This document shows positions 3,762-4,862 of a DNA stretch of 64,000 bases, piece by piece; positions within the stretch are counted from its first letter, which is position 1; the number at the start of each line of letters is the position of its first letter. The stretch lies in the NCBI RefSeq assembly GCF_050920415.1, contig NZ_CP169309.1, one strand, 5' to 3'. Made by a program: the position numbers and the translations under genes. This DNA comes from Escherichia coli (lineage in GTDB: Bacteria > Pseudomonadota > Gammaproteobacteria > Enterobacterales > Enterobacteriaceae). The notes under the pieces were generated by a model, which was not told the DNA's origin, made no database searches, and was given only the letters and a program-made list of their open reading frames with translations.

Positions 3762-4862
3762 ATGAAATTAAAAATAGTTGCGGTGGTTGTAACTGGTTTG
3801 TTAGCTGCGAACGTAGCACATGCTGCCGAAGTATATAACAAGGATGGTAATAAACTCGACCTTTATGGCAAGGTTACCGCTCTACGTTATTTTACTGATG
3901 ATAAGCGTGACGATGGTGATAAAACTTATGCCCGTCTCGGTTTTAAAGGAGAAACGCAAATCAATGATCAAATGATTGGTTTTGGTCACTGGGAATATGA
4001 TTTTAAAGGCTATAACGATGAAGCCAACGGCTCGCGCGGCAACAAAACCCGCCTTGCCTATGCAGGTTTAAAAATTAGTGAATTTGGCTCTCTGGACTAT
4101 GGTCGTAACTACGGTGTCGGTTATGACATTGGTTCATGGACCGATATGTTGCCAGAATTTGGTGGCGATACCTGGAGCCAGAAAGATGTCTTCATGACAT
4201 ATCGTACCACTGGTGTGGCAACCTATCGCAACTACGATTTCTTTGGCTTAATTGAAGGGCTGAACTTTGCCGCACAATATCAAGGCAAAAATGAACGCAC
4301 TGACAACGCTCATCTTTATGGTGCTGACTATACGCGTGCCAATGGTGACGGTTTCGGTATCTCCTCAACTTATGTTTATGATGGCTTTGGGATCGGTGCT
4401 GTGTATACCAAATCTGATCGGACAAATGCGCAGGAAAGAGCAGCGGCTAATCCTCTCAATGCCTCCGGTAAGAATGCAGAACTGTGGGCAACAGGTATAA
4501 AATATGATGCCAACAACATTTACTTTGCAGCTAATTACGCTGAAACATTAAACATGACCACCTATGGTGATGGTTATATCTCTAACAAAGCACAAAGTTT
4601 CGAAGTGGTGGCCCAATATCAATTCGACTTCGGCTTGCGCCCATCACTCGCTTACCTGAAATCAAAAGGCAGAGATCTGGGGCGTTACGGCGATCAGGAC
4701 ATGATTGAGTATATCGACGTTGGTGCAACGTATTTCTTCAACAAAAATATGTCGACCTATGTTGATTATAAAATCAACCTGATCGATGAAAGCGACTTTA
4801 CCCGTGCCGTAGATATTCGCACCGATAACATCGTCGCAACGGGCATTACCTATCAGTTCTAA
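3762..4862 (+). CDS. yddL: General porin, OmpC/OmpF/PhoE (GBP) family, full length
   Basis: 366 aa with signal peptide [37 protein letters not shown] and C-terminal ...TGITYQF beta-barrel end; terminator follows. Confidence 0.85.

Follow-up and report, generated by a model that had tools for sequence, protein, structure and literature searches.

The 64,000-bp stretch of Escherichia coli contig NZ_CP169309.1 (assembly GCF_050920415.1), referred to here as the window, encodes an intact general-diffusion porin at positions 3762-4862. The gene is very probably the Escherichia orthologue of Salmonella OmpD, ancestral to the interval between yddG and narU-narZ. Its position, its best sequence similarity and the homology of its upstream region together led to this assignment. 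The presence of the gene in some strains and its absence from others is already on record, and the protein is an ordinary general porin. What the analysis adds is the orthology with OmpD, a revised account of how the K-12 locus arose, the frequency of each state in the population and the observation that strong purifying selection goes together with weak codon adaptation.

The porin is encoded by a single long open reading frame (ORF) with an ATG start, 366 amino acids and no internal stops. Other ORFs overlapping it were of 77 amino acids or fewer. The coding features were as follows.

3762..4862, plus strand: porin coding sequence, 366-amino acid precursor, stop codon included, identified from the ORF, the Porin_1 match, the identity to syntenic porins and the ratio of non-synonymous to synonymous substitution rates (dN/dS)
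3762..3824, plus strand: predicted signal peptide, 21 codons, ending AHA with cleavage before AEVYNK, from alignment
4140..4169, plus strand: core of constriction loop L3, residues 127-136 with acidic D128 and E132, from alignment to OmpF D113, E117 and P116-G120
4874..4902, plus strand: intrinsic terminator with a 9-bp stem (6 G-C pairs), a 6-nt loop and a T-run, hairpin at 4874-4897

Pfam PF00267 (Porin_1) was matched in full, residues 27-366 covering profile positions 1-337 of 337 (E 2e-134, 448.8 bits compared to a cut-off of 23.7). Solved chains of OmpC, OmpK36, OmpK37, OmpF and PhoE aligned end to end with residues 22-366 (E 1e-127 to 1e-100, and 1e-127 to 1e-112 for the OmpC, OmpK36 and OmpF chains). 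The signal peptide was assigned by alignment to known porins. The N-terminus aligned with the signal peptides and mature N-termini of OmpC, OmpF, PhoE and OmpD, and the mature PDB chains start at query residue 22, matching the predicted cleavage. The mature N-terminus is of the AE(V/I)YNKDGNK type and the C-terminal end, TGITYQF, carries the aromatic β-signal (…YQF). Every OmpF constriction residue is conserved. The basic cluster is kept as K37, R58, R97 and R148 (OmpF K16, R42, R82 and R132) and the PEFGG motif as P131-G135 in precursor numbering. An AlphaFold2 model built from a 25-sequence alignment contained 16 strand elements at a mean predicted local distance difference test (pLDDT) of 65, which is moderate confidence. 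Foldseek placed this model at template modelling (TM) scores of 0.81-0.87 to OmpC 2j1n, OmpK36 and OmpF. The terminator hairpin is GACCAGCCC-TTATCT-GGGCTGGTT followed by the T-run and starts 12 nt after the stop codon. An earlier sequence-only reading of the window had described a complete 366-amino acid general porin with a signal peptide, a TGITYQF barrel end and a terminator of its own. All of these were borne out by the uninterrupted ORF, the full Porin_1 match, the alignment to porin signal peptides, the translation and the hairpin, and a hidden internal frameshift or stop was looked for in the ORF and none was present.

In a search of a large protein collection the best match outside Escherichia was a Citrobacter koseri porin with 77.6% identity. 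The next matches were other Citrobacter and Enterobacteriaceae porins (72-75%) and Salmonella proteins named porin OmpD by NCBI (72-73%). In direct pairwise comparison the identity to Salmonella OmpD was 73.9%. NmpC, Lc and other E. coli paralogues together ranged from 66 to 71%, and identity to K-12 OmpN and PhoE was 62.6 and 59.3%, respectively. The comparison with OmpC, OmpF and NmpC that the sequence-only reading had proposed gave 61.7% for OmpC, 60.3% for OmpF and 67-69% for NmpC, with Lc in the same range as NmpC. No other paralogue is as close in sequence as the OmpD-group porins. In a neighbour-joining tree (500 bootstrap replicates) the window porin, OmpD, NmpC and Lc formed one clade with 100% bootstrap, excluding OmpC, OmpN, OmpF and PhoE. 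The label OmpC/OmpF-like used in the sequence-only reading is too loose, with identities of 59-63% to K-12 OmpC, OmpF, PhoE and OmpN compared to 72-78% to OmpD-type porins. The porin falls in the OmpD/NmpC/Lc clade, and its locus makes it the counterpart of Salmonella OmpD.

The gene order of the window is fdnG (minus strand), yddG (plus), the porin (plus), two leucine-rich-repeat (LRR) genes (plus), narU and narZ. The clustering of the porin with yddG and the LRR genes noted in the sequence-only reading therefore holds, as the porin lies between them. In one Salmonella and two C. koseri loci the order is fdnIHG (minus strand), EamA/yddG, the porin, a GFA gene, an MFS gene, a TetR gene, narU and narZ. 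The MFS gene downstream of the Salmonella and C. koseri porins is smvA by position. In Escherichia albertii the porin directly follows yddG and is split by IS1. Salmonella, C. koseri and E. albertii all keep the arrangement fdnG–yddG–porin–…–narU, and in each of the four genera examined yddG lies directly upstream of the porin.

2621..3502, plus strand: yddG, DMT-family inner-membrane exporter, NCBIfam YddG equivalog at 472 bits

Salmonella enterica OmpD (STM1572, sometimes annotated nmpC) occupies the same slot, after fdnG on the minus strand and yddG on the plus strand and before narU-narZ, itself on the plus strand. It shares with the window porin 72-74% amino acid identity, a homologous promoter and leader and the same constriction residues, and its RybB seed site is partly kept here. 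The two differ in the length and sequence of surface loops L4-L6. Downstream, Salmonella ompD is followed by GFA-smvA-smvR whereas the window porin is followed by the two LRR genes, which are of the EspR family.

RefSeq names the gene 'ompC: porin OmpC', which would make it a second copy or allele of OmpC. The protein passes the NCBIfam OmpC subfamily model (496 bits compared to a cut-off of 484), and the name arises because this broad model is passed by 12 bits. The NCBI annotation pipeline PGAP applied the label ompC in every full-length genome sampled. Under this naming full-length carriers appear to hold two ompC genes. Set against the name are the 61.7% identity to K-12 OmpC, the 100% bootstrap split from OmpC and OmpN, a locus between yddG and narU and not in apbE-ompC-rcsD, and the 'porin OmpD' label which NCBI gives to the nearest named relatives in Salmonella and some Citrobacter. 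OmpC in the strict sense is contradicted by tree and position, and a copy or allele of OmpC is extremely improbable.

An origin from a decayed lambdoid prophage, leaving behind a porin of the NmpC/Lc type, would fit the 67-69% identity to NmpC and phage PA-2 Lc and their place in the same superclade (100% bootstrap). The literature, e.g. Fröhlich et al. (2012), treats the prophage gene nmpC as the ompD-like gene of E. coli (PMC3333887). However, NmpC and Lc are carried by prophages, whereas the window porin sits on the chromosome in a gene order shared between genera. Its flanking genes are fdnGHI, yddG, the LRR genes and narU, with no phage gene among them. The syntenic Citrobacter and Salmonella porins resemble it more closely (72-78%) than NmpC and Lc do, and the N-terminal extension of NmpC entries is absent from it. 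A prophage remnant can be given hardly any weight. Position points to the yddL locus, rather than nmpC, as the counterpart of ompD in E. coli. A literature search confined to open-access papers turned up none that identifies the yddL locus as orthologous to ompD.

The orthology with OmpD is also supported upstream of the gene. Approximately 210 nt 5' of the porin start aligned with the regions upstream of Salmonella and C. koseri ompD. Invariant blocks covered the putative -35 and -10 elements, the leader and the Shine-Dalgarno sequence.

3552..3761, plus strand: 5' region with homology to the promoter and leader of ompD in Salmonella and C. koseri, from alignment
3653-3658 and 3676-3681, plus strand: candidate -35 (TTGTTT) and candidate -10 (TTAAAA), weak elements, from homology
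3748-3752, plus strand: Shine-Dalgarno sequence AAGGA
3779..3788, plus strand: position orthologous to the RybB target of Salmonella ompD (+18 to +27), predicted using RNAduplex
3828..3839, plus strand: position orthologous to the MicC target of Salmonella ompD, codons 23-26, from alignment

The yddG-porin intergenic region of 259 bp has a GC content of 28.6%. Transcription was inferred to start near 3689 by homology with the 69-nt leader of Salmonella ompD (length derived from PMC4911921). A consensus scan predicted a different promoter pair, ATGTCA/TAAAAT at 3687-3716. The predicted RybB site, TGCGGTGGTT, could form 8 bp with the RybB 5' end, 2 of them G·U pairs. Using the K-12 RybB sequence the duplex energy was -13.7 kcal/mol here compared to -17.4 kcal/mol for C. 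koseri and -18.3 kcal/mol for Salmonella. The MicC-target position reads GAAGTATATAAC here, GAGGTATATAAC in Salmonella and GAAGTCTATAAC in other E. coli alleles. The orthologous MicC site is degraded and the best alternative duplex was weak, so MicC regulation is not claimed. Folding of full-length SdsR duplexes gave only long artefactual duplexes and was uninformative. An Rfam scan of 2300-8000 (E ≤ 1) detected no known cis-regulatory RNA or small RNA near the porin. A 16-mer resembling a CRP site, TTCGACTTCGATCACA, lies at 3601-3616, approximately 80 nt 5' of the inferred transcription start, and its right half TCACA is invariant in Salmonella and C. koseri. When 2 mismatches are allowed the window contains 19 occurrences of this pattern compared to 28.9 expected by chance, and a CRP site is not claimed. 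A G+C-rich hairpin, TGCCGGGT...ACCCGGCA, was noted at 3509-3530 just 3' of the yddG stop, with a terminator score on the minus strand only.

The sequence-only reading had described yddL of K-12 as a truncated pseudogene fragment, and this was correct. K-12 keeps only nucleotides 1-281/284 of the porin gene, with 98.6-98.9% identity there and in the upstream region. The K-12 entry in RefSeq is 276 nt long and reads 'yddL, porin, incomplete; missing C-terminus', and the LRR gene after it is frameshifted. An intact gene in K-12 would have spoken against the description, and alignment to the K-12 locus showed a stump only. K-12 follows the window to about 4042-4045, jumps to 5587 in the middle of the first LRR gene and jumps again to approximately 6547 in the second.

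4043..5586, no strand: segment absent from K-12-type genomes (deletion 1, approximately 1.54 kb), from junction mapping
5026..6291, plus strand: LRR1, LRR protein of 421 amino acids (419 from the annotated start at 5032), intact, equal to EspR2 and orf1600 of enteroaggregative E. coli (EAEC) 042
6353..7603, plus strand: LRR2, LRR protein of 416 amino acids, EspR1 family, intact

Deletion 1 spans the 3' three-quarters of the porin gene, its terminator and the 5' half of LRR1, and its junction lies in the short shared motif GGCAA[C/G]AA. When K-12 was compared to the O55:H7-type locus two gaps of 1,536 bp and 641 bp were found, each bounded by 9-12 nt that recur on both sides. The first agrees in size and content with O-island 62 of EDL933, which is 1,548 bp (PMC3079680). 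K-12 yddL (b1472) shares its first 281-284 nt and all of its upstream region with the window porin gene, and the deletion of about 1.5 kb fuses porin codon ~94 to the middle of an LRR gene, so that no barrel is possible. On this alignment yddL is the deletion remnant of a full-length porin gene.

The locus was described by Okeke et al. (2011) as O-island 62 (Z2239-Z2242) of enterohaemorrhagic E. coli (EHEC) and its equivalent in EAEC 042, with yddL resembling the 5' end of Z2239 (PMC3079680). The island was held to be recently acquired on GC grounds and K-12 to be 'disrupted' by an insertion of yddK (PMC3079680). An insertion of yddK is rejected here, as K-12 yddK is 98% identical to a segment of O55:H7 LRR1 and the two deletions explain the K-12 arrangement. 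Recent horizontal import of the porin together with the LRR genes would be in keeping with the patchy distribution (about 20% of genomes) and with the low GC content of the block (porin 43.5%, LRR genes 33-34%, flanks 48%). It does not account for the fact that Salmonella, C. koseri and E. albertii have a porin of the same clade at exactly this place next to yddG, or for the upstream homology across genera. K-12-type genomes must descend from a full version because the first 281-284 nt and the LRR remnants persist in them. The GC content of the porin is unlike that of the LRR genes, which suggests separate histories, and the LRR genes stand in place of the Salmonella GFA-smvA-smvR genes. Recent import of the porin is unlikely. 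Cross-genus synteny and the deletion junctions argue for an ancestral porin and for deletions in K-12, and the LRR genes may be a later acquisition.

The distribution of the gene was surveyed in 5,426 complete E. coli genomes. Of these, 1,111 (approximately 20%) contained 80% or more of the porin gene, and 1,008 contained 80% or more of the entire 4.4-kb yddG-narU interval. Approximately 3,150 genomes (about 58%) held nucleotides 1-281/284 only, with the K-12-type junction in every sampled row. A further group of approximately 1,150 (about 21%) matched only the last ~145 bp before narU, and in the B2 strain NC101 yddG is directly followed by narU. Sporadic disruption of the porin by insertion sequences (IS) was also seen, e.g. 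IS3 in O139:H1 P15-25. Carriers in the sampled rows included O157:H7, O55:H7, O145:H28 and O166:H15. The same gene at the same locus is Z2239 (O-island 62) of EHEC O157:H7 and its EAEC 042 equivalent. The window porin had 96% nucleotide and about 99% amino acid identity to the O55:H7 and O157-type alleles. The window allele is rare, and only 17-20 of the 5,426 genomes reach an identity of 99% or more. In O157 the middle LRR gene carries a frameshift, whereas the window has both LRR genes intact and the rarer porin allele. These patterns would fit an ancestral enterobacterial gene between yddG and the narU-narZ operon which was retained in the window lineage and in approximately 20% of genomes. 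K-12-type strains would have lost its 3' three-quarters through the 1.5-kb deletion flanked by microhomology, leaving the yddL stump, and B2-type strains would have lost the whole gene.

Selection on the porin was assessed by pairwise comparison of five E. coli alleles. Up to 43 of 1,101 nucleotides differed (3-4%) but only 0-6 amino acids. The dN/dS was 0.007-0.07 at dS up to 0.17. Over the same comparisons yddG and narU gave 0.006-0.02, so that the porin is similarly constrained, and the adjacent LRR genes gave 0.29-0.42, about tenfold above the porin. The porin stays intact in several strains with truncated or frameshifted LRR genes. By these measures purifying selection on the porin is as strong as on its housekeeping neighbours. 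The protein is maintained by selection, judging by the low dN/dS and by its survival where the LRR genes have decayed. The sequence-only reading had called the porin functional, which stands in the evolutionary sense only.

Codon adaptation was calculated using rpsA, pflB, aspC and asnS as the reference set. The indices were as follows.

Window porin: 0.47
K-12 PhoE: 0.47
K-12 OmpN: 0.57
K-12 OmpF: 0.72
Salmonella OmpD: 0.73
C. koseri orthologue: 0.77
K-12 OmpC: 0.84

The index of the window porin argues against a major abundant porin. Together with the GC-poor upstream region it suggests low or conditional expression, unlike the abundant OmpD of Salmonella. PhoE and OmpN of E. coli, which are quiescent or conditional porins, are likewise intact general porins with a modest codon index and offer a plausible model of expression. 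Both are separate paralogues (59-63% identity) encoded elsewhere in the genome, and shared control by H-NS or LeuO is speculation. OmpS1 and OmpS2 of Salmonella are further quiescent or conditional porins.

An ORF left intact by chance, or a gene recently silenced, non-functional and becoming a pseudogene as in K-12, would explain its loss by at least three routes in E. coli and its disruption by IS elements in O139:H1 and E. albertii. Codon adaptation far under that of the major porins and an AT-rich upstream region typical of silenced genes also favor silencing. However, divergent alleles differ at 34-37 synonymous compared to 1-6 non-synonymous positions, which cannot arise without selection on the protein. 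The pore and assembly motifs are all intact and the porin remains intact in strains whose LRR genes are frameshifted or truncated. A dead or dying gene is improbable, and the porin is probably functional but minor or conditionally expressed.

Several points weigh against a conserved, functional orthologue of OmpD. Branching inside the OmpD/NmpC/Lc clade was poorly supported (37-66% bootstrap), and because of these weak internal nodes the orthology rests mainly on synteny and upstream homology. The GC content of the porin gene is 43.5% compared to 50% for ompD in Salmonella and C. koseri, and allele replacement instead of simple vertical descent could account for this. The MicC site known from Salmonella ompD is degraded. 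Approximately 80% of E. coli genomes lack the full gene, which marks it as dispensable. The structural model is of moderate confidence and falls below a pLDDT of 50 in the L3 region. No expression, protein or channel data for Z2239/ECs2076/EC042_1601 were found in the searched literature, and the supplements of an EDL933 transcriptome and proteome paper contained nothing on expression of the porin gene.

The gene is probably transcribed from its own promoter, orthologous to that of ompD, with transcription ending at its own terminator. From knowledge of the family, the precursor would be exported by Sec and cleaved after AHA. BAM would insert it by way of the C-terminal …YQF signal and a 16-stranded trimeric barrel would form. 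Loop L3 (PEFGG, D128, E132) would face K37, R58, R97 and R148, giving a water-filled channel for small hydrophilic solutes. The porin is assumed to be additional to OmpC, OmpF and PhoE in the source strain, the loci for which lie outside the window.

Other features of the window were also noted. LRR1 and LRR2 are paralogous with GC contents of 33-34% and are decayed in many strains. The LRR2-family gene is named 'T3SS effector LRR protein EspR1' by RefSeq in O157 and O55:H7 relatives (T3SS, type III secretion system), and EspR2, the counterpart of LRR1, is split in O157. Compared to the K-12, B2 and O55:H7 alleles yddG (2621-3502) has about 50 synonymous differences (dS 0.27-0.29) and 0-2 amino acid differences, and narU (7928-9316) has a dS of 0.17-0.25 to other alleles. 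The whole fdnG-narU block is possibly a divergent haplotype imported by recombination. The fdnG frame (1-2389, minus strand) is broken by an in-frame TGA at which the N-terminal ORF (1802-2389) stops and beyond which the frame continues, and RefSeq gives fdnG as a single product of 1,015 amino acids. The TGA is consistent with the known selenocysteine codon of formate dehydrogenase-N. The window is nearly identical to E. coli MFDS1022581 (NZ_CP169399.1), with one single-nucleotide difference in the first 23,961 bases. Compared to that genome positions 23962-25297 are an insertion of 1,336 bp with the end TAGACTGGCCCCCTGAATCTCCAGACA. We take this to resemble IS2 (1,331 bp and a 5-bp duplication), judging by its size and end sequence. 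At approximately 18750-23850 the annotation of NZ_CP169399.1, used as a proxy, shows an IS256 remnant, ISEc1, a group II intron reverse transcriptase/maturase (ltrA) and four small hypothetical genes. This segment is an accessory insertion between yddH and yncG.

The finding involves no new kind of biology and its value is modest. For annotation, K-12 yddL would be the remnant of an ompD orthologue, and the RefSeq name ompC on the full-length gene is misleading. A 2023 paper took K-12 yddL as an uncharacterised small barrel protein of 96 amino acids (PMC9976479). For porin regulation, the proper E. coli comparator for the RybB, MicC and SdsR networks of Salmonella ompD would be this gene in approximately 20% of strains and not nmpC. 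A wider and rather doubtful suggestion is that the yddL-locus porin, as the true ompD counterpart, shifted from a major to a silenced or conditional porin and may work with YddG as an outer-membrane exit or entry route, its losses reflecting selection against an exposed channel. If so, the K-12-type deletion, the clean B2-type deletion and the IS disruptions would reflect selection and not neutral decay, and the exposed channel would be an entry point for, e.g., phage, colicins, H2O2 or antibiotics. The O157:H7, O55:H7 and O145:H28 strains and the phylogroup D EAEC and extraintestinal pathogenic E. coli of Okeke et al. would have one general porin more than K-12. This extra porin could matter for permeability, phage receptors, vaccine antigens and resistance through porin loss.

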